Of a DNA stretch of 64,000 nt, positions 2,908 through 49,759 are shown in pieces; positions within the stretch are counted from its first letter, which is position 1; each line of letters begins with the position of its first letter. Below the pieces are notes generated by a model. The model saw only the letters and a list, made by a program, of their open reading frames with translations. It searched no databases and was not told the origin of the DNA. This stretch comes from Gemmatimonadales bacterium (lineage in GTDB: Bacteria > Gemmatimonadota > Gemmatimonadetes > Gemmatimonadales > GWC2-71-9), in the NCBI GenBank assembly GCA_037189525.1, contig JBBCJC010000005.1, positions 512,001-576,000 of the forward strand, given 5' to 3'. The translations under genes and the position numbers were made by a program.

Positions 2908-4917
2908 ATGACCCAGCCATCGAGTCTACGCGGCCTGCTCCTGACCACGATCGTGGTCGCCGCGACCGCGTGCGGCACAGGGGCGCCCAACGACCTGGTC
3001 AGCGGTGACGCCGCCCGACGGACCTATGTCGCGCCGGGCGAACACGACGAGTTCTACGCCTTCATGTCCGGGGGATTCAGCGGCCAGGTCACGGTCTATG
3101 GCCTGCCATCCGGACGCCTTCTCAAAACCATTCCGGTGTTCTCCCAGTTTCCCGAGAACGGCTATGGCTACTCGGAAGAGACCAAGCCGCTCCTCGAAAC
3201 GAGCTATGGGACGGTTCCCTGGGATGACACCCACCATCCGGAGCTGTCGCAGACGGACGGCGTCCCGGACGGGCGCTGGCTCTTCATCAACGGGAACAAC
3301 ACCCCGCGGATTGCCCGGATCGACCTGACCACCTTCGAAACCGACGAGATCCTCGAGATCCCGAACTCGGCAGGTGGGCATGCGGCGCCGTTTACGACCG
3401 CCAATTCCGAGTACGTCGTCTCCGCGATCCGGTTCTCGGTACCGGTGCCCAACACCGACGTGCCGATCGAGAGCTACCAGCAGAACTTCAAGGGCTCGCT
3501 CTCGTTCATTCGCGCCGACCAGCCGGGCAAAATGGACATCGCATTCCAGATCCTGATGCCTGGCTACAACTACGACCTCGGTCACGCCGGCCGCGGACCG
3601 TCGGACGGCTGGTTCTTCTTCACCAGCTACAACTCCGAGCAGGCCTACACCAAGCTCGAGCTCAACGCATCGAAGAACGACAAGGACTACATCGCCGCAG
3701 TCAACTGGAAACAGGCGGAGCAGTGCGTCGCTTCCGGCAAGGCGTCGAAGCGCCCGGCCCGCTACTTCCACAACTACATCGACCACAGCACCCGGATTGC
3801 CCAGAGCCACGTCCGGACCTCGGTGACGGTGCTCGAGCCCTCAGCCTGCCCTGGCCTGGTGTACTTCCTCCCGACGCCCAAGTCGCCGCACGGCGTCGAC
3901 GTGGATCCGACCGGCGAGTACATCGTGGGCGGCGGCAAGCTGGCCAGCGTGATCCCGGTGCACTCGGCCACCAAAATGCTGGCAGCCATCAAGGACCAGA
4001 AGTTCGACGGTGAGCTGGACGGAATTCCGGTGCTGCAGTACGACGCCGTGCTGGCCGGCGAAGTCGACAAGCCGGGCCTGGGACCGCTCCACACCGAGTT
4101 CGACGGCAAAGGCTACGCCTACACCTCGATGTTCATCTCGTCCGAAGTCGTCAAATGGAAGCTGGGCACCTGGGAAATCATCGACCGGGCGCCGACCTAC
4201 TACTCGATCGGCCATCTGATGGTGCCGGGCGGCGACTCGAAGCAGCCGTGGGGCAAGTACCTCGTGGCGATGAACAAGATCACCAAAGACCGCTATCTCC
4301 CCACCGGCGGCGAGTTGTCCCATTCGGCGCAGCTCTATGACATCAGCGGCGAGAAGATGCAGTTGCTGCTCGACTTCCCGACCCAGGGCGAACCGCACTA
4401 TGCCCAGGCGCTTCCGGCATCGCTGATCAAGGACAAGCAGGTCAAGTTCTTCTCGCTTGCTGAGAATAAACATCCGCACGTGGTCCGCGCGGAGTCGGAG
4501 ACCGGCATCGAGCGCAGCGGCCGGGTCGTCCGGATCAAGATGGTCGCCATCCGCAGCCACTTTGCACCCGATGTGATCGAAGGCATCGAAGTGGGTGATA
4601 CGGTCTACTGGCACATCACCAACGTCGAGCAGGACTGGGACATCCTCCACGGCTTTGCCGTCCTCGGGATGCAGAACGCGGAAATCATCATGCAGCCGGG
4701 CGAAACCCGCACCCTGATGTGGGTTCCCAGGTCGGCCGGTGTCTTCCCGTTCTACTGCACTGACTTCTGCAGCGCGTTGCACCAGGAGATGTCCGGCTAT
4801 GTGCGGGTCTCGCCTCGGGGTGGCGGCGTTCCCCTCAAGGCCAACGTGTCGGCCAAGGCAGCTACGCAACAGGCGCGCCTGCCCGCCGTGTCGCCGAGCC
4901 GCTCGAGCGGAGAGTGA
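2908..4917 (+). CDS. nosZ: Nitrous-oxide reductase, clade II (Sec/lipoprotein signal)
   Basis: CuZ His motifs DTHH, GGH, PKSPHG, GLGPLH, IGH, EPH; CuA HGF...CTDFCSALHQEM; lipobox-like AATAC and no twin-arginine. Confidence 0.97.
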   Translation: MTQPSSLRGLLLTTIVVAATACGTGAPNDLVSGDAARRTYVAPGEHDEFYAFMSGGFSGQVTVYGLPSGRLLKTIPVFSQFPENGYGYSEETKPLLETSYGTVPWDDTHHPELSQTDGVPDGRWLFINGNNTPRIARIDLTTFETDEILEIPNSAGGHAAPFTTANSEYVVSAIRFSVPVPNTDVPIESYQQNFKGSLSFIRADQPGKMDIAFQILMPGYNYDLGHAGRGPSDGWFFFTSYNSEQAYTKLELNASKNDKDYIAAVNWKQAEQCVASGKASKRPARYFHNYIDHSTRIAQSHVRTSVTVLEPSACPGLVYFLPTPKSPHGVDVDPTGEYIVGGGKLASVIPVHSATKMLAAIKDQKFDGELDGIPVLQYDAVLAGEVDKPGLGPLHTEFDGKGYAYTSMFISSEVVKWKLGTWEIIDRAPTYYSIGHLMVPGGDSKQPWGKYLVAMNKITKDRYLPTGGELSHSAQLYDISGEKMQLLLDFPTQGEPHYAQALPASLIKDKQVKFFSLAENKHPHVVRAESETGIERSGRVVRIKMVAIRSHFAPDVIEGIEVGDTVYWHITNVEQDWDILHGFAVLGMQNAEIIMQPGETRTLMWVPRSAGVFPFYCTDFCSALHQEMSGYVRVSPRGGGVPLKANVSAKAATQQARLPAVSPSRSSGE

Positions 4918-5510
4918 CCATGCCACGCTCAGCCCGACTCCTGATGGTACTGGCGGCACTCTGCGTCGCGGGCGCGCTGGCCTTCCCTCTCTGGGAGGTC
5001 CGTCTGGTCGCGCCGCAGTATCCGGAGGGGCTGGGCCTCCAGATCCACGCACATACCGTGAGCGGGATCAAGCCGAACGACCTGACGAACATCAACAACC
5101 TCAACCACTACATCGGGATGCGGCCGATCGAGCCGGACGCGATTCCCGAACTTCGGTGGATGCCGGGGATCCTGATCGGGCTGGCCGCGGTTGCACTGAC
5201 CGCGGCCGGCGTCGCCCGCAAGGGATTGCTGCGCATCTGGCTGGGTGCCCTGGTGGTGCTCGCCGTGGCCGGCGTCTGGGACTTCTGGCGCTGGGGACAC
5301 GACTACGGCCACAACCTCGACACCGAGAACGCCATCATCGTGGTGCCCGGCATGACCTATCAACCACCGGTCATCGGGCGGAAACACCTGCTCAACTTCA
5401 CCGCGACGGCCTGGCCTTCGGCCGGCGCGGCCCTGCTCGGTGTGGCCTTCCTGCTCGGCGGCGTGGCGTTGCGTCTCTCGCGTCAGCCACGGATAGGAGT
5501 CGTCAAATGA
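4914..5510 (+). CDS. nosB: Clade II nos membrane protein NosB
   Basis: PLW..L.APQYPEGL, INNLNHYIGM, W.WGHDYGHNLD, YQPP..G.K.LLNF; ATGA overlap with nosZ. Confidence 0.85.
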   Translation: MTMPRSARLLMVLAALCVAGALAFPLWEVRLVAPQYPEGLGLQIHAHTVSGIKPNDLTNINNLNHYIGMRPIEPDAIPELRWMPGILIGLAAVALTAAGVARKGLLRIWLGALVVLAVAGVWDFWRWGHDYGHNLDTENAIIVVPGMTYQPPVIGRKHLLNFTATAWPSAGAALLGVAFLLGGVALRLSRQPRIGVVK

Positions 5511-5962
5511 CCTGCGATCGACGCCAGTTCCTGCTCATCCTTGCCGCCGGCGCCGTCGGCTGCGCGGCGGGCATTCCGGTCCTCCGGTACGGCGTCGACG
5601 TCTGTGACTTCTGTCGCATGACGATCAGTGATCCCGAGTTCGCCGCATTGGCCGAGACGGCTAAAGGGCGCGCCGCGCGGTTCGACTCGATCGAATGTCT
5701 GGCCCGGTGGATCGAAGAACAAGAAGAGTTCCCCAGAAATACCTGGGTTACTGACTTCGCCACGCCAAGCGTCATGCTTGCCACGAACGAGGCGCGATTC
5801 TACCGGGCCGCCGTCCGGTCCTCGATGGGTCAGGGATGGATCGCATCCGATGCGAAGCGAACCGGCGCACCATTGCCGAAGAGTGAAGGACCCTACACGT
5901 GGGATGAAACCCGCCGCGGCATCTTAGCGGGGGCCGAAGAGCCGCATGGAGGGAGGCACTGA
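5507..5962 (+). CDS. nosL: NosL copper chaperone lipoprotein
   Basis: CDFCRMTISD, FDSIEC and SSMG motifs; DRRQFL...AVGC signal. Confidence 0.9.
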   Translation: MTCDRRQFLLILAAGAVGCAAGIPVLRYGVDVCDFCRMTISDPEFAALAETAKGRAARFDSIECLARWIEEQEEFPRNTWVTDFATPSVMLATNEARFYRAAVRSSMGQGWIASDAKRTGAPLPKSEGPYTWDETRRGILAGAEEPHGGRH

Positions 5963-7185
5963 TGCGCGCGCTCCTCGTTCTGGCTCAACTCGCGACCATC
6001 GCCGTCGGCCCGAATGAGTCGTTCCAAACCCTGGCCGCAGCCATCGGTGCGGCGGCGCCGGGCGCGGTGATCACGGTTCGCCCCGGGATCTATCGCGAAC
6101 CGACCGTCACGATCGACCGGCAGATTACCCTGGTGGGCGAACCCGGAGCCATCATGGACGGCGAAGGGACTCACGGTCTCCTGGTCCTGACCGCCCCCGA
6201 TATCACGGTGCGGGGGCTCACCTTTCGCAATACCGGCATCTCGTTTCAGGAAGACCGGGCTGCGGTCCTGGCCCAGGGAGCCGAACGGTGCCGCATCGAG
6301 GGCAACACCTTCGAACAGACCTTCTTTGCCGTCTACCTCGCGAGTACGACCGACTGCGCCGTGATCGGGAATACCATGATCGGGCTCCGCGGTTCCGAAA
6401 GCCGGACCGGGAATGCGGTCCATTCCTGGGGCTCGCGGCATATCGTCATCAAGGAGAACACCATCTCGGATCACCGGGACGGCATCTATCTCGAGTTCAC
6501 CCGTCACGCGACCGTGACCGGTAACCGGAGCGCCAGGAACCTGCGCTACGGTCTGCACTTCATGTACGCCGATTCGTCGACCTACGACGGCAATCGCTTC
6601 GAAGCCAACGGAAGCGGCGTGGCCGTGATGTACTCCAAATCGGTGACATTGACCCACAACACCTTCGTCGACAACCGCGGAGCGACCGCCTACGGACTGT
6701 TGCTCAAGGAGATCGCCGATGTCGACCTGCGCGACAACCGGTTCATCAACAATACGACCGGCCTGCTGGCCGACGGTGCCGACCGCGTCCGCATCGTCGC
6801 CAACGAGTTTGCGGAGAACGGCTGGGCCCTCCGTCTGATGGCCAGTACGTCCGACGGCGTGGTGCGCCAGAACCAGTTCCGCAGCAACACCTTCGACTTG
6901 GCCGTCAACGCCCGGATCCTCACCACCGAATTCAGCGGCAACTGGTGGGATCGCTATCGGGGCTGGGATCTCGACCGCGACGGCATCGGCGACGTGGGAC
7001 ACCACCCGATCCGGCTCTTCACCCTGTTCGTCGGACGCGCCGACCCGGCGCTGATGCTCCAGCGTTCGTTGTTCGTCCGCATGCTCGACGCCGTGGAGCA
7101 GGCGCTTCCTGCGCTCACGCCGAAGGAGGTCATCGACCCCTCGCCGCTGATGGCCCCGCCCGTGAAAGGAGCGCCCTCCCTATGA
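5962..7185 (+). CDS. nosD: NosD maturation protein (beta-helix)
   Basis: GNAVHSW, RDGIYLEF, LRYGLHFMY, GNWWDRYRGWDLDRDGIGD. Confidence 0.95.
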   Translation: MRALLVLAQLATIAVGPNESFQTLAAAIGAAAPGAVITVRPGIYREPTVTIDRQITLVGEPGAIMDGEGTHGLLVLTAPDITVRGLTFRNTGISFQEDRAAVLAQGAERCRIEGNTFEQTFFAVYLASTTDCAVIGNTMIGLRGSESRTGNAVHSWGSRHIVIKENTISDHRDGIYLEFTRHATVTGNRSARNLRYGLHFMYADSSTYDGNRFEANGSGVAVMYSKSVTLTHNTFVDNRGATAYGLLLKEIADVDLRDNRFINNTTGLLADGADRVRIVANEFAENGWALRLMASTSDGVVRQNQFRSNTFDLAVNARILTTEFSGNWWDRYRGWDLDRDGIGDVGHHPIRLFTLFVGRADPALMLQRSLFVRMLDAVEQALPALTPKEVIDPSPLMAPPVKGAPSL

Positions 7186-18416: not shown

Positions 18417-19829
18417 ATGACGACCGAAGTCAGTCTTCTCGCGCAGGTCGACGCCATGTTCGACCAGGCCGCGGCCCTGACACCGCACGATCCGACTTTG
18501 CTCGCGCATATCAAGGCATGCAATGCCGTCTATCAGATGACCTTTCCGATCCGCCGCGACGACGGCACGATCGAAGTGATCCATGCCTGGCGCGCAGAGC
18601 ACAGCCATCACCGGATGCCGACCAAGGGCGGCATTCGGTACTCGATGGCGGTGACGGCCGATGAAGTGATGGCGCTGGCTTCGCTGATGACGTTCAAGTG
18701 CGCGCTGCTGGACGTGCCCTTCGGCGGCGCCAAGGGCGGTATTCGGATTGCGCGCCACAAATATTCCGACGCCGAACTCGAGCGGATTACCCGCCGCTAC
18801 ACCTTCGAGCTCTGGCGCAAGAACTTCATCGGACCCGGCGTCGATGTCCCGGCGCCAGACTACGGCACCAGTTCCCGCGAAATGGCCTGGATTGCCGACA
18901 CCTACCGCAGCCTGAGCAACGACCTCAACGCGATGGCCTGCGTGACCGCCAAGCCGGTTTCGCAAGGCGGTATTCGCGGCCGGAACGAAGCGACCGGCCG
19001 AGGCGTGATGTTTGGCCTCCGGGAAGCCTGTAACGTCGCCGAGGATATGAAGAAACTTGGCTTGGGCCCCGGCCTGGCCGGAAAACGAATCGTGATTCAG
19101 GGACTCGGCAACGTCGGGTATCACGCCGCCAAGCTGCTCCAGGAGCAGGGCGCCGTCCTGGTCGGCCTGGCGGAGTATGAGGGCGCCATCAGCAATCCCA
19201 AAGGGCTGGACGTCGACCGGGTCATGGAGCACCGGAAAAACACCAAATCGATCCTCGGATTTCCGGGAGCCCAGGATATCCCGCAGTCGGCAGCTGCGCT
19301 CGAACTCGAGTGCGACATCCTCGTCCCCGCCGCGCTCGAAAACGTGATCACCGCCGAGAATGCGCCCCGCATCAAGGCCAAGATCATCGGCGAAGCGGCC
19401 AACGGGCCGACCACGGCCGAAGCTGACGGCATCCTCAAGAGCCGGGGCGTCTACATCATTCCCGACTTTTACCTCAACGCAGGCGGGGTGACCGTCTCGT
19501 ACTTCGAATGGCTCAAGAACCTCTCGCACGTCCGCTTCGGCCGGATGCAGCGGCGATTCGAAGAACAATCCAACCTTGGCATCCTGAACCTGGTGCAGCA
19601 GAGCACCGGACGCAGCATCGACGCGGCCGAGTTGAGCCGCATTGCTCATGGCGCGAGCGAAGAAGATCTGGTCAACTCCGGCCTCGAAGACTCCATGGCC
19701 GTTGCCTACCACCAGATTCGCGATATCCTGATCCGGCCCAAGGGCCCGACCGATCTCCGAACCGCGGCGTTCATTTCCGCGATCGACAAGATCGCCGTGA
19801 GCTATCAGGAGCTGGGCCTGTTCCCGTAA
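18417..19829 (+). CDS. gdh: Glutamate dehydrogenase (Glu/Leu/Phe/Val family)
   Basis: PTKGGIRY, PFGGAKGGI, DVPAPD, GRNEATGRG, GLGNVG, NAGGVTVSYFEW. Confidence 0.95.
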   Translation: MTTEVSLLAQVDAMFDQAAALTPHDPTLLAHIKACNAVYQMTFPIRRDDGTIEVIHAWRAEHSHHRMPTKGGIRYSMAVTADEVMALASLMTFKCALLDVPFGGAKGGIRIARHKYSDAELERITRRYTFELWRKNFIGPGVDVPAPDYGTSSREMAWIADTYRSLSNDLNAMACVTAKPVSQGGIRGRNEATGRGVMFGLREACNVAEDMKKLGLGPGLAGKRIVIQGLGNVGYHAAKLLQEQGAVLVGLAEYEGAISNPKGLDVDRVMEHRKNTKSILGFPGAQDIPQSAAALELECDILVPAALENVITAENAPRIKAKIIGEAANGPTTAEADGILKSRGVYIIPDFYLNAGGVTVSYFEWLKNLSHVRFGRMQRRFEEQSNLGILNLVQQSTGRSIDAAELSRIAHGASEEDLVNSGLEDSMAVAYHQIRDILIRPKGPTDLRTAAFISAIDKIAVSYQELGLFP

Positions 19830-19846
19830 GCGAAGGCGGATGAACG

Positions 19847-19885
19847 AAGCGGCCCGTGCGACCGGCAAGGTCACACGGGCCGCTT
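19847..19885. terminator. Hairpin between the convergent gdh and tRNA-Cys
   Basis: AAGCGGCCCGTG...CACGGGCCGCTT inverted repeat. Confidence 0.65.
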
Positions 19886-19903
19886 TGCCTTTGGACAGAA
19901 AAG

Positions 19904-19974
19904 AGGCGCCGACCGGAATCGAACCGGTGATTAGGGTTTTGCAGACCCTTGCCTTGCCACTTGGCCACGGCGCC
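19904..19974 (-). tRNA. tRNA-Cys (GCA), CCA not encoded
   Basis: GGCGCCGTGGCCAAGTGGCAAGGCAAGGGTCTGCAAAACCCTAATCACCGGTTCGATTCCGGTCGGCGCCT cloverleaf. Confidence 0.97.
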
Positions 19975-19978
19975 CGGA

Positions 19979-21205
19979 CTATCGGTCGAGCAGTTCCTCG
20001 ACGATCGCGATGTATTCCCGCACCAGCGCATCGTGGTACGGCCCGCTGGCCTTGGCCGCGAAGCCGCTGCGCACGGCGTGTACCCGCCCTTCCCGATCGA
20101 GGAAGAACGTCGCGGGCCAGGTATTCAGGTTGACGGCCTGCGGCAGCTTGGCAGCCACGTCGCTCGGCTCTCCCGCCACCAGGTACGGATACTCGATTCC
20201 GTACTTCGCGACGAAGGCGCGCAACCGGCCGAGATCCTCCAGCTGTTCCGCCTCTTCGAAATCGAGCGCCACCACTTCCAGTCCCCGATCCCGATAGCGG
20301 CGGTACAGGTCCGCCAGGAACGGCGCCTCGTCGTGGCAATTGGGGCACCAGCTGCCTGTCACGTTGACTACGACCACCTTCCCGGCAAACCGCGCGTCCC
20401 GCTCGGTTACCAGACGCCCGTCGAGATCGGGAAAGGCAAACCGGAACGGCTCAGCCGAGTCGCGAACCCGGGTGTGAGTCGCGGCATCGGCCGGCTCGGG
20501 CAAGCCCCGCGCCCGGGCCAGATCGGGACGAAGCGCCTCGAAGATCCGAGGTGCTCCGCGGGGCGAATGCAGGGTGAGCCGGAGCGTTCCATCCGCCTGC
20601 GGATCGACCTCCAGCCGCGCCGGCCGAGTCCCCGCGAAATGACTGAGCTCGAATCGGGTGCCCGTCCAGGTGCCGGTCAGGGCGCCTGCATCGCCATCGA
20701 CCCGAAGGATGGTGGCCGACACCGCCACTCCCTGCTGCCGGACCACGAACCGCCAGGCGCGCTCGCCCTTGGCGGTTTCGGCCGGCAGGTACCACTCACC
20801 ATCGATGTTGGGCGCCGGGACGGCAGATCGCGCGGTTGCCGTTCCGACCGGCGCGGCCTCGACCGGATGGAATCCGCGCCGTTCGTTGCCATAGCGGCCC
20901 CGGAAGGCCCCGTCCGAGAGCACCCCTTCGAACCTCGTCGCAAGGTGCGCAAATTCGACCACCACGGAATCGCCCTGTCGGCGCACGGCGGTCGAGGTCA
21001 CCGGCACGTCGCCGTTGTAGAGCCGGACCAGCCGGCGCCCGGACTCCGAAGCCCACTCGAGCGGAAAGTCGATGGCGAGCGAGTCATACCGAATCGTTCC
21101 GGTCCAGCGGCCCTGCGGCTCCTGCGCTTCGAGCAAAGCCCCGCCACCCGCCGCGAATCCGAGGACGAGGGCAGACCATGTGGCGCGTTTGAACGTCGCT
21201 GACAT
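19979..21205 (-). CDS. TlpA-family thiol:disulfide oxidoreductase with long N-terminal periplasmic region
   Basis: FAFPDLDG...GSWCPNCHDEAP...WPATFFLDREG; ATG overlaps the upstream TGA. Confidence 0.9.
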   Translation of the reverse strand: MSATFKRATWSALVLGFAAGGGALLEAQEPQGRWTGTIRYDSLAIDFPLEWASESGRRLVRLYNGDVPVTSTAVRRQGDSVVVEFAHLATRFEGVLSDGAFRGRYGNERRGFHPVEAAPVGTATARSAVPAPNIDGEWYLPAETAKGERAWRFVVRQQGVAVSATILRVDGDAGALTGTWTGTRFELSHFAGTRPARLEVDPQADGTLRLTLHSPRGAPRIFEALRPDLARARGLPEPADAATHTRVRDSAEPFRFAFPDLDGRLVTERDARFAGKVVVVNVTGSWCPNCHDEAPFLADLYRRYRDRGLEVVALDFEEAEQLEDLGRLRAFVAKYGIEYPYLVAGEPSDVAAKLPQAVNLNTWPATFFLDREGRVHAVRSGFAAKASGPYHDALVREYIAIVEELLDR

Positions 21206-21678
21206 CAGCGGCCTCCCGGCAGCTGCGCAACGAGCGTAGCCGTCCGCGGTGGCAGGCAGGTGGTCTCGGTGCAGGCCTGATAACGAACTTTGAGCGCGGC
21301 ACCGGCCACAGGCGCCGGCGAGCCGACCCGAACCGGCACCACGAATCGCGGCCGTCCGTCGTAGACCTCGACCGGAATCCCGAACGCCGACGTTTCCTGA
21401 ACGATCGGCGCCGGGCCGGTGACCGCTCCGGCCAGGGAAACCGACTCGGCACCGGGCGCGATTCGCAGTGGAAACGGCCCGCCAGACGTTTGTGTCAGCG
21501 AATACACTTTCCACCCGGGGTCGATCGAGGCCGTCACCGCCAGGGTGACCACCTCGGCATCACCACCACGGGTGGGTACCACGGCTACCGACCAGCGAAC
21601 CGGATCGGGACCCTGGGCCACGACACCCGACACCACGACCGCGGATAGCCAGACAACCAGCTTCAGTGTGACCTGCAT
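21205..21678 (-). CDS. Stand-alone DsbD N-terminal (DsbD-alpha) domain protein
   Basis: Signal peptide, PVRWS, IDPGWKVYS, YQACTETTCLPP. Confidence 0.85.
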   Translation of the reverse strand: MQVTLKLVVWLSAVVVSGVVAQGPDPVRWSVAVVPTRGGDAEVVTLAVTASIDPGWKVYSLTQTSGGPFPLRIAPGAESVSLAGAVTGPAPIVQETSAFGIPVEVYDGRPRFVVPVRVGSPAPVAGAALKVRYQACTETTCLPPRTATLVAQLPGGR

Positions 21679-21745: not shown

Positions 21746-21775
21746 AAAACGGCCCACCCGTGAACGGGTGGGCCG
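21746..21775 (-). terminator. Intrinsic terminator (attenuator) upstream of dsbD-N
   Basis: CGGCCCACCCG-TTCA-CGGGTGGGCCG followed by TTTTCGTTGT on the minus strand. Confidence 0.85.
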
Positions 21776-21819
21776 GAAGCGTTTGACTGCGCGCCGCCGT
21801 GGCGCAATCGACTGTCGTA

Positions 21820-21891
21820 CTATAGCCGCGCGCCGCCCCACCCGTTTCCGAGGGGACAACAACAGACAGCCTGAGCGCGGACCAGCGACAT
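21820..21891 (-). CDS. Putative Cys-rich leader peptide MSLVRAQAVCCCPLGNGWGGARL
   Basis: GGAG 8 nt before ATG; TGT TGT TGT at 21864-21856; precedes a terminator and carries its antiterminator. Confidence 0.7.
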   Translation of the reverse strand: MSLVRAQAVCCCPLGNGWGGARL

Positions 21892-21926
21892 GGATGATGC
21901 TCCGAACGTAAATGAACTCACGTCGG

Positions 21927-21956
21927 ACAATAATCGGGACATGACGAACTTGTAAA
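21927..21956 (-). promoter_or_regulatory. Possible sigma70 promoter for the leader
   Basis: TTTACA-18 bp-TATTGT on the minus strand. Confidence 0.4.
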
Positions 21957-23727: not shown

Positions 23728-25749
23728 TCAGGGCGTCAGCGTCTCCTTCGGCATGACCCGGGCCGCCCAGAGGCCCGTGTTGAAGTCCGTAAAGAGCACG
23801 TGACCCTTCCACGGCATTGCGTTCATGACGAACGATGCGTTCGGCGTGAAGCCTTTCGGATCGTACGGCTTGAACACGGCAATCTCGCGGCCCTGATCGA
23901 CCAGATTGCCCATCAACTCACCCGACACATCGACCATCCGGACACCACCCTCGTAGTACGCCTGATAGAGGACGTCATCCTTGACGATGATGTCGTGCGC
24001 ACCGAAATCCTCGATATGGTAACGGCCCACCGGCATCGGCTTCATCGGATCGGTAAAGTCGACGATATGGACGTATCCGCCCGAGGTCTGCGGCACGCCA
24101 CCCGGCGTGGTCATCTCGTTCCGGTAGTTGGTACCGGCCCAGACGCGGTTGGCCCGATTCATCTCCTCGTCGCCGATGAACAGGTAGGTCCGCCCGGTCG
24201 ACTCCTGGAAGTACGGGAAGATTTCGTGGCCGCTGTTGACCGAGTACGACGTGATCAGCTTCGGCTTCTCCGGCGAACCGCCGTACTTGCCGTTCCCGAC
24301 GTCGACCACCACCGTGCCCGCCCCGCCCTGCGCCGAGTAGGCAATGCCGTCCCGAACCCAGAGATCGTGGATCCGCGCATTCGGGTGGCGATACTCGCTG
24401 ACGTACCTCGGCTTGTAGATGTCGCGCACGTCGATGATGACGTACTTGGCGCCGCCGGAGATGGCGTAGAGATAGTCCTCGGTGGCAAACATGTTGTGCA
24501 CACCACCGGTGAGTTCCTGCTCGAACGTCGACGCGATCTTGGGATGCGCCGGGGTGGCCAGATCGAGGATCACGACGCCGTTGACCCGGTTAGACGCGCC
24601 TTCGCGCGCCAGCACGCCATACCGCCCGTCGGGCGAGACGGTCACGTCGTTGATGGTCCGGGCATCGATCTTGATCGAGTCGGTCTTGACCACATTGTTG
24701 AGATCGGTGATGTCGAAGACGTATGCGTAGCCATCGCCGCCCCAGGTGCCGACCAGCGCGTAGTCCTTACCGTCTTTCCCCGTCCAGGGCCAGAGGTCGG
24801 AGGTATGCACGTGGTTGATGTTGCCGCGGCTGGTGATCTGGATCGGCCGCCGAGCGCTCCGCTCGACCACTTCCAGCGTCTTCTCGGCAAAGGCAGACCC
24901 GGAACGGGCCATGACGGTGTAGCGTCCCGGATGATTCGCGGCAAAGCGACCGAACTGGACGATACCCGAGCCGCCCGGCAGACCCGACGGCGCCACCGTG
25001 TCGGCGGGCACGTAGCTGTAACTCCAGGTTACCGGCGCATCGGTCACCTCTCGGCCGCCGGCGCCACGCGCCACGGCCTTGAGGTGGATCACGTCGCCCG
25101 TCCGCAAGGTCGAATCGGGCAGCGAGATCTCGAGCGCCGTCACCGGATGGGCGGTAACGGTATGGGTCAGCGTGGCCGAGGCGCCGGCATCCTGCGCCGT
25201 GATGGTGACGGTGCCGGCTTTGACACCGCGGACGTTGCCGAACCGGTCAACCGTCGCCACGGACGGGTCGGAACTGCGCCAGGTCGGGACCAGACCGGGC
25301 CGCTCGCTGCCATCGGCATGGAGGCCTTTGGCCCGGTGCGCCAGGGTCACACCGGTGTAGAGCTTGCCCTGTTCGGGCACGATCTCCAGCTTAGTAAGCT
25401 GAGGCCAGGTGACAGTGACCGGGATTTCCAGCATGACCGGATTTCCGCCAGCACCCTGGGCTGCAGCCGTCAGGGTGTGCGTGCCGGCGGCCAGAGCGTG
25501 GACCACACCATCGCTGTAGGCTACTGCGCGCCGAGTACCGAAGACCCGGACCTCGGGGTCGGCAATCTCCCGGCCCTGGGCATCGTAGGCCCGGATCCGG
25601 ATCCGGGTCGAATCGCCGGCCTGGATCCGCAGGGCAGTCGGTTCCGCCACCAGCTTCGCGACGGCCGCGCCTTGCGCCTGGAGGGGCGCCCCGATCAGGG
25701 GCAGGAGCAGCAGCGCTGTTGGGATGGCGCCAAAACGAGTTAGCTTCAT
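23728..25749 (-). CDS. Secreted Ig-like (Big_2) plus LVIVD-repeat protein
   Basis: WRSSDPSVATVD; VVILDL, YVIIDV, VVVDV, HIVDF repeats. Confidence 0.8.
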   Translation of the reverse strand: MKLTRFGAIPTALLLLPLIGAPLQAQGAAVAKLVAEPTALRIQAGDSTRIRIRAYDAQGREIADPEVRVFGTRRAVAYSDGVVHALAAGTHTLTAAAQGAGGNPVMLEIPVTVTWPQLTKLEIVPEQGKLYTGVTLAHRAKGLHADGSERPGLVPTWRSSDPSVATVDRFGNVRGVKAGTVTITAQDAGASATLTHTVTAHPVTALEISLPDSTLRTGDVIHLKAVARGAGGREVTDAPVTWSYSYVPADTVAPSGLPGGSGIVQFGRFAANHPGRYTVMARSGSAFAEKTLEVVERSARRPIQITSRGNINHVHTSDLWPWTGKDGKDYALVGTWGGDGYAYVFDITDLNNVVKTDSIKIDARTINDVTVSPDGRYGVLAREGASNRVNGVVILDLATPAHPKIASTFEQELTGGVHNMFATEDYLYAISGGAKYVIIDVRDIYKPRYVSEYRHPNARIHDLWVRDGIAYSAQGGAGTVVVDVGNGKYGGSPEKPKLITSYSVNSGHEIFPYFQESTGRTYLFIGDEEMNRANRVWAGTNYRNEMTTPGGVPQTSGGYVHIVDFTDPMKPMPVGRYHIEDFGAHDIIVKDDVLYQAYYEGGVRMVDVSGELMGNLVDQGREIAVFKPYDPKGFTPNASFVMNAMPWKGHVLFTDFNTGLWAARVMPKETLTP

Positions 25750-25808
25750 GCGAATGACTCCACGACGGGTGACGGACATCCGTAAAGATTGGCAAGGAAG
25801 GTGGAACG

Positions 25809-47854: not shown

Positions 47855-49759
47855 TCACTTCATCACCGGGAGCCGGATACCGGACGGGTATTCGGGGCCG
47901 CGATGCAGCGTCACCGTCGGACGACCGGTGACCGGCGGCCGCTCGGTGTTGTCGGCATCGGCGCCCATGATGGTGACCCGCAGCCGATGGCCCGCATTGA
48001 AAACCGTAGCTGTCGGATGCAGCGCGATCTGCAGCGTCGCCACCTGGTTCGGCACTAGCGGTTTCCGATCTGCCTTGTTGGCGCGATGCCAGGGCAGCCC
48101 CAGGAAGTTGTAAGGCGGTGTGGTGGTGTCGCGATAGGAGGCTCGCAGGATTCCTTCGGTGACGTAGCGGGAATACCCGGCACTGTCGACCTCGGTGAGC
48201 ACGGCGTAGAAGTCGCCGTCGGTCTGGTTGGAACTGACATGGAGCGTCACCACCGGATGCCCAACGATGGTCAGATCCGCAGCCAACGGCTCGGTCGTGT
48301 AGGTCAGCGCCTTGGCCTCGTTAGGCGCCAGGTCCGGATAGCGCATCGGCCCCTGCCCGACCGCGTTGTCCCAGCGGCTCGCAGTGCCGGTGGTGGTGGT
48401 CAGGTCGACCAGATATCTGTCGCTCCCGGCGGCCGAGGGCGCGGTGCCGAGCACACCGTCGTTGACCGACTCGATGCTACCGGAGCTACCCGCCCCGAAG
48501 AAATAATCGACGTTGCTGACCCCCTTGGCCGGCCATTCGTCAGCCGAACGCCACTCCCATTTGCCCGGATCGATCATCAGGGCGTAGTTGATCCGCGCAC
48601 CGGAATCGACGCCGTTCCGGATACCCTTGAGCCAGCGATCGAACCAGCGATGCTGCTCTGCCCCATAGACCCGGACGAATTCGACGTTGACGATGCTGTC
48701 GTGCGCCGCATGGGCCCAACCGCCCATACCGACTCGCTGCGGTCCCTTGTAGTTGGCAAACCAGAGCATCTCGTCGGTGGCAAAGATGTCGTACCAGCCT
48801 CCGAAATGGTACGCAGGTACCGAGGCCCGATTGATCGCGTCCAAGACACCGGCCGGGTCGTGGCGCGACCAGGCGAAGTCGGGCGTGTCGTAATCGCGGT
48901 TGACAGCCCGGCGATACTGCTCCACCACGTCCCAGTTCTTCTCGTGCATGGCAAGCGCTTCGCCGCGCAGCGCGCCGCTGGTGTCGGCATCGACCGGCGG
49001 CTCGGGAAAGACCTTGTCGAGGCTGTGCGTCAGGATGCCCCAGTGCTGCATCGTGTTCTCGCGATAGATGCCGCCCTCGTACACCAGGTTGTACATGTCG
49101 AACGCCGCCACGTTCGGGAAGATCGCTTTGAGGGCGGGATGCGCGGTGCTCGCGGCCATGTACTGCGTGATGCCCAGATAGGATCCCCCGAACATGCCGA
49201 GGTTGCCGTCGCTCCAGGGCTGCTTGACCATCCAGTCCATCACATCGTAGGCATCGCGCGTCTCGGTCGGCGAGAACAGTCCCTCGTAGCGGCCGAACGA
49301 CGCCCCGCCACCGCGGACCTGAACCGCCACGATCACGTAGCCGTGCCTGATCAGGCGTTGCAGCGTCGGATTGACATCCACCATCGATGGCGCGTTGCGG
49401 CGCGCCAGCGCTTCCTCGGTGGCGCGCGCGGCCGACCCGAGATTGCGAACGTCCCGGCTGGCGAGAAGTGCCGCCGCGTCGGGCGTGCCGCGATGGTAGC
49501 GTGAATGCGTCCACACCACCGGAAACTTCCCGTCGGCCGGCAGGCCGTTGACCGAGGGGCGAATCACGTCGACGGCCAGACGCGTCCCGTCGCGCACGGT
49601 AACGTACTCGGAAGTCCGGACCCATTCGGTGAACCGGGGCTCGTCGTACCCTTCGTACTGCCCGAAGCTGGAAATCCGGCTGCTGTCCTGATCGGCGCTC
49701 CGGGGGGCACAGGCGGCCAGCATCAGCACCGCCGCGGCGGCAAGACTGCGCTGTAGCAT
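47855..49759 (-). CDS. CocE/NonD family hydrolase lipoprotein
   Basis: LAAC lipobox, RDGTRLAVD, GGSYLG, GWYD, PepX_C-like end. Confidence 0.9.
   Translation of the reverse strand: MLQRSLAAAAVLMLAACAPRSADQDSSRISSFGQYEGYDEPRFTEWVRTSEYVTVRDGTRLAVDVIRPSVNGLPADGKFPVVWTHSRYHRGTPDAAALLASRDVRNLGSAARATEEALARRNAPSMVDVNPTLQRLIRHGYVIVAVQVRGGGASFGRYEGLFSPTETRDAYDVMDWMVKQPWSDGNLGMFGGSYLGITQYMAASTAHPALKAIFPNVAAFDMYNLVYEGGIYRENTMQHWGILTHSLDKVFPEPPVDADTSGALRGEALAMHEKNWDVVEQYRRAVNRDYDTPDFAWSRHDPAGVLDAINRASVPAYHFGGWYDIFATDEMLWFANYKGPQRVGMGGWAHAAHDSIVNVEFVRVYGAEQHRWFDRWLKGIRNGVDSGARINYALMIDPGKWEWRSADEWPAKGVSNVDYFFGAGSSGSIESVNDGVLGTAPSAAGSDRYLVDLTTTTGTASRWDNAVGQGPMRYPDLAPNEAKALTYTTEPLAADLTIVGHPVVTLHVSSNQTDGDFYAVLTEVDSAGYSRYVTEGILRASYRDTTTPPYNFLGLPWHRANKADRKPLVPNQVATLQIALHPTATVFNAGHRLRVTIMGADADNTERPPVTGRPTVTLHRGPEYPSGIRLPVMK

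Follow-up and report, generated by a model that had tools for sequence, protein, structure and literature searches.

What does a run of cysteine codons, read just ahead of a transcription terminator, have to do with the thiol-disulfide chemistry of the cell envelope? The question is raised by a locus of a Gemmatimonadales bacterium (contig JBBCJC010000005.1), of which we analysed a stretch of 64,000 nucleotides (nt), called here the window; all coordinates are positions in this whole window, G000 denotes the window's own genome, and the remaining G and L numbers denote relative genomes and loci. On the minus strand, between 21956 and 21746, a short Cys-bearing open reading frame (ORF) and a terminator hairpin precede the genes dsbD_N and tlpA and a gene for tRNA-Cys. 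An initial annotation, made from the sequence alone, had proposed a cysteine-sensing leader with the 1:2 / 2:3 / 3:4 layout of the trp/his-type attenuators. Based on chance controls, on folding and on the comparison with relatives, we consider it probable (about 0.85) that the leader is a ribosome-dependent transcription attenuator, which reads the supply of charged tRNA-Cys like the classical attenuators.

The leader and its modelled switch

The elements of the leader region are the following:

21927 to 21956, minus strand: predicted sigma-70-like promoter (TTTACA, 18 nt, TATTGT), a 9/12 match, weak alone
21900 to 21903, minus strand: Shine-Dalgarno (SD)-like GGAG, placed 8 nt 5' of the leader start codon and shared with G021 and G005
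21820 to 21891, minus strand: leader ORF of 23 amino acids (aa), ATG 21891 to TAG 21820; length, start, Cys run and stop are the same in G021 and G005
21856 to 21864, minus strand: control codons TGT TGT TGT (Cys10-12), invariant in three congeners; codons 7-9 and 15-16 change amino acid
21849 to 21860, minus strand: segment 1, the 5' strand of the protector, overlapping the Cys codons and pairing with segment 2 in ribosome-free RNA
21833 to 21846, minus strand: segment 2, partner of segment 1 (protector) or of segment 3 (antiterminator)
21785 to 21809, minus strand: hairpin between segments 2 and 3, which folds with and without the ribosome and is largely kept in the congeners
21763 to 21776, minus strand: segment 3, the 5' arm of the terminator
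21746 to 21760, minus strand: segment 4 and U tract (four U, then CGUUGU); hairpin of -24.5 kcal/mol

Leader, protector, antiterminator and terminator are real and lie beyond chance. When the sequence was re-read, the GGAG, the ATG, the 23-codon ORF and the TGT run were all found as the initial annotation had given them; the peptide is MSLVRAQAVCCCPLGNGWGGARL, and the TGT run read in other frames, as Leu or Val runs, comes without the conserved start and stop. Only 11 of 20,000 dinucleotide shuffles of the 149-nt leader region contained a frame with start, three consecutive Cys and stop. The protector hairpin that it described (CCCCTCG at 21855-21849, a GAAA loop and CGGGTGGGG at 21844-21836) is present as well, and reaches back into the Cys codons (from 21860) within a longer helix. 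Segments 2 and 3 pair at 13 of 14 positions, as claimed, with one G.G and -27.2 kcal/mol, an energy equalled by 2 of 2000 shuffles and by none of 3000 random genome windows; among the 161 terminators of the genome this duplex ranks 2 by energy and 39 when scaled to its own terminator stem. The 11-bp terminator was confirmed too (21775-21750, ten pairs being G-C), sited between the leader and dsbD_N. Searched with Rfam at gathering scores, the whole window gave two tRNA matches only, with no T-box or S-box match at the leader.

Promoter-like sites are weak evidence when taken alone (one found, against 0.3 +/- 0.5 expected by chance), and the -35 hexamer, 65 nt 5' of the leader ATG, is the same in the three congeners (G000, G005 and G021), with differing flanks. 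The predicted leader start lies 36 nt beyond the predicted -10 box and has its SD sequence, which argues against a leaderless start.

The RNA up to the terminator loop was folded with a ribosome footprint placed at each codon. As long as the A site has not passed the Cys codons, helix 2:3 forms with p>0.9 for forward footprints of 9-19 nt (p 0.8 at the last Cys codon with the 19-nt footprint), and it is gone (zero) once the ribosome stands 1-4 codons beyond the last Cys. The Trp attenuator of the same genome (C3:116351 region, L206; a WWWPW leader before the trp operon), which served as positive control, gave the same footprint profile. For the RNA before the decision, this supports in silico the claim that stalling at Cys frees segment 2 and passage occludes it; together with the spacing, the internal Trp control and the conservation of the Cys run, it likewise supports the proposed trp/his-type layout.

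According to these computations, a ribosome with its A site on a Cys codon would cover segment 1, and segment 2 would pair with segment 3 before segment 4 is made, pre-empting the terminator. A few codons later the ribosome would break into segment 2, or 1:2 would form after its release, and 3:4 would terminate. We infer that the switch operates in vivo and that its control is kinetic; the intervening hairpin is possibly a pause or spacer hairpin.

Leaders in relatives

The two other congeners (TlpA 85-87% identical) keep the -35 box, SD sequence, start, Cys run, stop, four segments and tRNA, and the unpaired leader codons change amino acid among the three genomes. In another family (G057 and G401, TlpA 58%) the same gene pair lacks the tRNA and stands behind a leader of another sequence, which has 7-8 Cys and is followed by a terminator of 12 bp. 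Each of the five Gemmatimonadota dsbD_N-tlpA operons found thus has a terminator preceded by a Cys leader, in two versions of unrelated sequence, with three Cys in G000, G005 and G021 and with 7-8 in G057 and G401. Among 30 DsbD_N matches in 401 genomes of the class, a leader is present at the four that adjoin this tlpA and at none of the remaining 26. A DNA search with the leader in 60 relatives matched only the two close congeners, and a metagenome scan with DsbD_N gave five distant loci that have neither a terminator nor this tlpA. Four loci (L060, L061, L180 and L181) were excluded as duplicates of others in the count, and G035 enters the tallies only.

Cys leaders also stand before tlpA genes in Acidobacteriota. 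In the class of G438, tlpA occurs in 28 of 251 genomes (two loci are without upstream DNA and one is a partial match), and at 15 of these 28 a Cys-bearing ORF precedes a terminator common to them, with at least three Cys in 12 leaders, two in 2 and one in 1. Six of 78 other named tlpA loci carry a leader, two of them being duplicates (four net), and Acidobacteriota tlpA loci with a differently built Cys leader amount to 19 in total. In a tree of 122 TlpA rows, the carriers form a Gemmatimonadota clade (5/5) and a separate group (18/32).

In 18 Acidobacteriota leaders, whose kin are not independent, segment 2 pairs better with the terminator arm of its own leader (residual -1.15 kcal/mol, permutation p 0.0007; control windows, p 0.54 and 0.99). 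The Acidobacteriota terminator is 97.8% paired, with two-sided changes in 4 of 10 pairs. The initial annotation had suggested aligning orthologous upstream regions, and this comparison bore it out, with a Cys run conserved in all five Gemmatimonadota operons and stems that covary among the Acidobacteriota leaders.

Across 23 leaders, Cys makes up 93 of 614 residues, compared with 0.63% in long ORFs, and 62 of these 93 codons are UGU (21% in G000 long ORFs), possibly because of slower wobble reading. The best antiterminator segment starts 7-19 nt past the last Cys of the main Cys run in 20 of the 23 leaders, the distance being 11 nt in the window leader and 8 nt in the Trp control.

These recurrences bear on a simpler explanation, in which the hairpin would be a plain terminator (belonging to the upstream gene, or serving as a constant damper), with the Cys-rich ORF beside it by coincidence. 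The upstream gene is indeed co-oriented in G021, but there it has a terminator of its own, and in G000 and G057 it is divergent. Half of the ten CC-bearing short frames of G000 that have a hairpin look like off-frame accidents, and the terminator dominates at equilibrium; against this stand the rarity of such a frame in the shuffles and the return of Cys leaders, unrelated in sequence, before the same gene family. We regard this explanation as scarcely credible.

It is also very unlikely, in our estimate, that the same Cys sensor acts mainly through translational or Rho-dependent control, as in the actinobacterial cys leaders, with the hairpin secondary. Translational control is the tested mechanism in mycobacteria (10.1101/834739) and was proposed in PMC1262725, and it would suit the short U tract and the weak modelled switch of some homologues. 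The Cys codons, however, pair with segment 2 inside the leader and not with the ribosome-binding site of dsbD_N, which lies some 55-60 nt past the U tract, and the terminator stems covary. Moreover, the unit ends in a tRNA gene, for which transcription is the only possible level of control, and this counts against a translational mechanism.

Several observations weigh against the attenuator. When the full-length RNA is folded to equilibrium, the terminator prevails whatever the state of the ribosome (p>=0.9), as it does in the Trp control, so that read-through must be kinetic. The U tract is short, with only four U. The antiterminator beats its own shuffles at p<0.05 in only 8 of 23 leaders, and the footprint walk (performed without L187, and without L198, whose ORF runs into the terminator and which was therefore left out of the folding) gave little or no switch in the Acidobacteriota L084, L117, L188, L199, L200 and L202 and in the G000 cysK leader, and only a narrow peak in the G005 leader. 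The paired core is invariant within the three congeners, so no compensatory change is available there, and three of the 15 leaders in the G438 class hold only 1-2 Cys. Within the ~330-520 nt inspected, no leader was found directly upstream of 72 of the 78 other named tlpA loci, or of any of 15 distant Gemmatimonadota tlpA paralogues, and the carriers, whose kin are not independent, represent about three lineages. To these must be added the sulfate-assimilation gene present in some carriers, as described below.

The operon and its possible role in cysteine supply

The genes behind the leader are the following:

21205 to 21678, minus strand: dsbD_N, a stand-alone DsbD alpha domain of 157 aa with the cysteine pair CTETTC (PF11412, E 2.3e-13, over cut-off)
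19979 to 21205, minus strand: tlpA-like gene, 408 aa, whose product combines a thioredoxin domain of ResA/DsbE/TlpA type, bearing WCPNC, with a pair of eight-stranded beta barrels (PF00578, PF08534; structure model)
19903 to 19974, minus strand: tRNA-Cys(GCA), 4 nt past the tlpA stop (Rfam match and ARAGORN), in the same place in G021 and G005
19847 to 19885, no strand assigned: long hairpin between tRNA-Cys and a convergent Glu/Leu/Phe/Val dehydrogenase gene, read directly from the sequence

The dsbD_N product has a start that looks like a signal peptide (judged by eye), and its stop overlaps the tlpA start at 21205 as TGATG. The structure model of TlpA (mean predicted local distance difference test, pLDDT, 96.8) matches a DsbE-type chain with Z 19.8. 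Its 200 N-terminal residues (window 20528-21127), which match no Pfam family, fold in the model as a tandem pair of eight-stranded barrels resembling avidin (Z ~10), and may be a ligand-binding part; they matched unnamed clusters under 0.9 in the Atlas and, apart from these, generic barrels only, which gives no function. CPNC is found in 108 of 123 TlpA homologues, and two CcdA-like genes (PF02683) lie elsewhere in G000. The long hairpin is likely the end of the transcription unit, and no promoter-like site was found near the tRNA-Cys in 19750-20400.

The targets named in the initial annotation, a DsbD alpha domain and TlpA rather than Cys biosynthesis genes, were correct, and the tRNA-Cys behind tlpA had been missed. 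This tRNA is the second genome copy in the three congeners (in G000 the other lies at C2:795422 and differs from it in the anticodon stem); in G438 a copy exists apart from that of L099, and G057 and G401 were found to have one copy, away from the operon. An island attachment site is an unlikely role for it, since the unit abuts the 5' end of the tRNA and this order is common to three genomes. A further ARAGORN tRNA-Cys at 47999-48067, with no Rfam match, is probably spurious.

Behind tlpA, the ten homologues scanned include genes for DsbD_N (2), rhodanese (3) and 1-Cys peroxiredoxin (2), and a tRNA-Cys lies within ~700 nt in L080, L083 and L099. The L080 cluster (3507-6788) comprises tlpA, a hydrolase-like ORF, tRNA-Cys and a peroxiredoxin-like ORF (names given by eye), with no leader directly before tlpA. 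In L099 (2640-2780), a second short frame with three Cys and a hairpin lies ~200 nt upstream of the tlpA leader, possibly as a tandem attenuator. Next to the G057 operon (L033:2319-6384) lies a cystathionine gamma-synthase gene (TIGR02080, over cut-off) in divergent orientation, and an OsmC-like gene follows the operon.

The window leader, real as it is, is not the only one of its genome, and four others had escaped the initial annotation. G000 has 742 short CC-bearing frames, of which ten have a terminator behind them and five look real, standing before dsbD_N-tlpA, cysK, metY-metX, a TonB/SusD unit and a phhA-like gene. A Cys leader and terminator precede cysK (TIGR01139, over cut-off) in 7 of 9 loci, and a Met/Cys-rich leader and terminator precede metY (TIGR01326) in 12 of 14 loci with upstream DNA (L224-L237). 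The cysS gene of G000 has no upstream terminator.

At the individual loci of G000, the cysK leader (C3:809904-811000, L220) is near-leaderless, with CC twice and a terminator, and has no clear modelled switch; that of metY-metX (C5:194720-197245, L204 and L224) switches in the model at Met-Met codons just 5' of Cys-Cys. A five-Cys leader with terminator (C2:307670-314800, L203) precedes genes for a 686-aa immunoglobulin-like/propeller protein, a TonB-dependent receptor and a SusD protein, a candidate uptake system for organic sulfur; its first gene resembles window 23728-25779, and no such Cys leader was found before the five homologues checked. Three terminators, at C1:653156 (plus strand), C1:401853 (minus) and C3:624313 (minus), have a very strong complement upstream (-25 to -28 kcal/mol) and are candidates for further attenuators or riboswitches.

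The phhA-like gene (PF00351; C5:484245-485150, L205 and L240) has a Cys leader in G000, G021 and G005. Among its relatives (L241-L259), ten (L243-L252) have a Tyr-run leader and terminator on the same RNA scaffold, and 7 of 20 loci have neither type. The protein has ADLLGH in G000 and G021, against HDxFGH in 13 others, which we take to be the loss of the first iron ligand. From these sequences, the leader appears to have undergone a Tyr-to-Cys sensor swap with a change of function. In the literature covered, a Tyr attenuator before phhA was not found.

Given the other Cys leaders of G000 and the tRNA-Cys, the dsbD_N-tlpA operon would be one member of a cysteine-supply regulon. Such a role is suggested because the same design heads cysK and metY-metX, because a second tRNA-Cys ends the operon and because no 3'-phosphoadenosine-5'-phosphosulfate (PAPS) reductase was found. 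PAPS reductase (PF01507) was not found in G000 (98% complete), G005, G021, G057 or G401; it is present in 19 of 21 other congeners (G000, G005 and G021 being one lineage) and in 2 of the 4 Acidobacteriota carriers tested, the point deferred from above. The idea that carriers always lack sulfate activation thus fails. PF06426 was not found in G000 either; its model matches only 6 of 14 controls, and G000 has cysK.

Upon read-through, the cell would gain extra tRNA-Cys and two proteins, a free DsbD alpha domain and a thioredoxin-like reductase that is exported. The alpha domain would probably be fed by a CcdA-type membrane protein encoded elsewhere (a path after PMC3322552), and the tRNA-Cys would add feedback when tRNA-Cys itself is short or damaged. 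Envelope redox control, the role that had been proposed initially, is one of two that we retain. Its form here would be envelope thiol repair when oxidation drains the cysteine pool, which we consider possible, if on the doubtful side. The other is scavenging, with thiols or cysteine freed from extracytoplasmic disulfides, to which we would give even odds; the absence of a detected PAPS reductase in G000 makes sulfur scavenging at least as likely as control by redox stress.

The nature of the targets also invites a different sensor, in which the leader peptide itself would bind a thiol-reactive ligand (copper or an oxidant) through its cysteines and control arrest, similarly to CruR. CxC and CxxC clusters do occur in leaders, the target is a thiol-redox pair, and CruR has a CXXC motif in an upstream ORF (PMC9426467). 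None of 27 leaders, however, has RAPP, RGPP or PPP, only the Cys residues of the leaders persist from one lineage to another, and the terminator here is intrinsic, where CruR depends on Rho. An arrest downstream of the Cys run would occupy segment 2 and favour termination, and leaders of the same design precede cysK and also, with codons for Trp or Tyr in place of Cys, the trp and phhA genes. Ligand sensing of this kind is thus highly improbable, and tRNA-Cys attenuation is the reading that we retain.

In a wider picture, which we advance tentatively and at somewhat less than even odds, Gemmatimonadota and Vicinamibacteria-type Acidobacteriota would share a terminator-based cysteine regulon, in which stalling induces a module that reduces disulfides outside the cytoplasm, so as to mine or repair thiols, together (in three congeners and one acidobacterium) with a second tRNA-Cys dependent on its own charging. 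This regulon would have grown by recoding old attenuators, such as the phhA-like one. If so, the reach of ribosome-read attenuation, beyond the genes of amino-acid supply, would take in the thiol chemistry of the envelope as well as a tRNA gene, in two phyla of soil and water that have received little study. It would also give the uncharacterised TlpA family a testable function (activity under cysteine shortage), and leader codons would offer a route to gene annotation.

Comparison with known systems

The initial annotation knew of no such system. For this target and these phyla we also found none in print, whereas Cys attenuators as such have been published (10.1101/834739; PMC8632094). In the literature covered, which leaves out most subscription papers, we found no Cys attenuator that precedes DsbD/TlpA genes, occurs in Gemmatimonadota or Acidobacteriota, or governs a tRNA gene, and the accessible parts of PMC4833913 and PMC2965389 contain nothing on such an attenuator. 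Cys attenuators are therefore known, and the dsbD_N-tlpA-tRNA-Cys target and these phyla are apparently new.

The mycobacterial polycysteine leaderless short ORFs of the "Cys ribulon" are tested Cys sensors (10.1101/834739; PMC13096801, PMC13236596). Like the window leader, they have consecutive Cys codons in a short upstream ORF and serve several unlinked operons with one signal, and their targets include a sulfurtransferase and mshA, a redox-buffer gene (10.1101/834739). As described there, they are leaderless, act translationally by masking the downstream SD sequence and are without an intrinsic terminator, whereas the window leader is SD-led, with terminator and antiterminator. The actinobacterial cys leaders of PMC1262725 were similarly predicted without terminators.

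The uORFC-8-2 motif before cysS of Rhodobacterales (predicted, 145 examples; PMC8632094) comes closer, with an AUG-started upstream ORF, tandem Cys codons in its first stem, and a second stem and U run as intrinsic terminator. In the account given there, it stands exclusively before cysS in alphaproteobacteria, with UGC dominant; here UGU prevails, and the phyla and targets are other ones. Among the papers within reach, a terminator-type cysteine attenuator exists as this earlier prediction only, and the window leader offers an unusually clean layout for testing one.

A Cys-bearing upstream ORF reportedly controls envelope genes in the case of CutF. The same likeness holds for CruR, which in the accessible description (PMC9426467) senses through the nascent protein, with CXXC, a RAPP arrest and Rho dependence, none of which is a feature of the window leader. 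On the side of the targets, split DsbD/ScsB systems lead from CcdA to an exported thioredoxin and a free alpha domain (PMC3322552). Here too a free alpha domain lies beside an exported thioredoxin-like protein, with PF02683 genes elsewhere; the differences from that system, so far as it is described there, are that the alpha domain is of the DsbD type and that the thioredoxin bears two beta barrels.

In the trp/his-type attenuators (described in PMC1262725 and in the introduction of 10.1101/834739), the genes under control serve the synthesis, import or charging of the amino acid that is sensed. This is the case for the sister leaders before cysK and metY and not for dsbD_N-tlpA, whose leader senses cysteine in front of PF11412, PF00578 and tRNA-Cys, with no biosynthesis or synthetase genes; because its targets are not biosynthetic, we do not class the operon as a plain classical attenuator. 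In its build it nevertheless resembles that type throughout, with a short leader ORF and tandem control codons, a protector 1:2, an antiterminator 2:3 and a terminator 3:4, and with a spacing and a modelled switch that match those of the Trp attenuator of its own genome.
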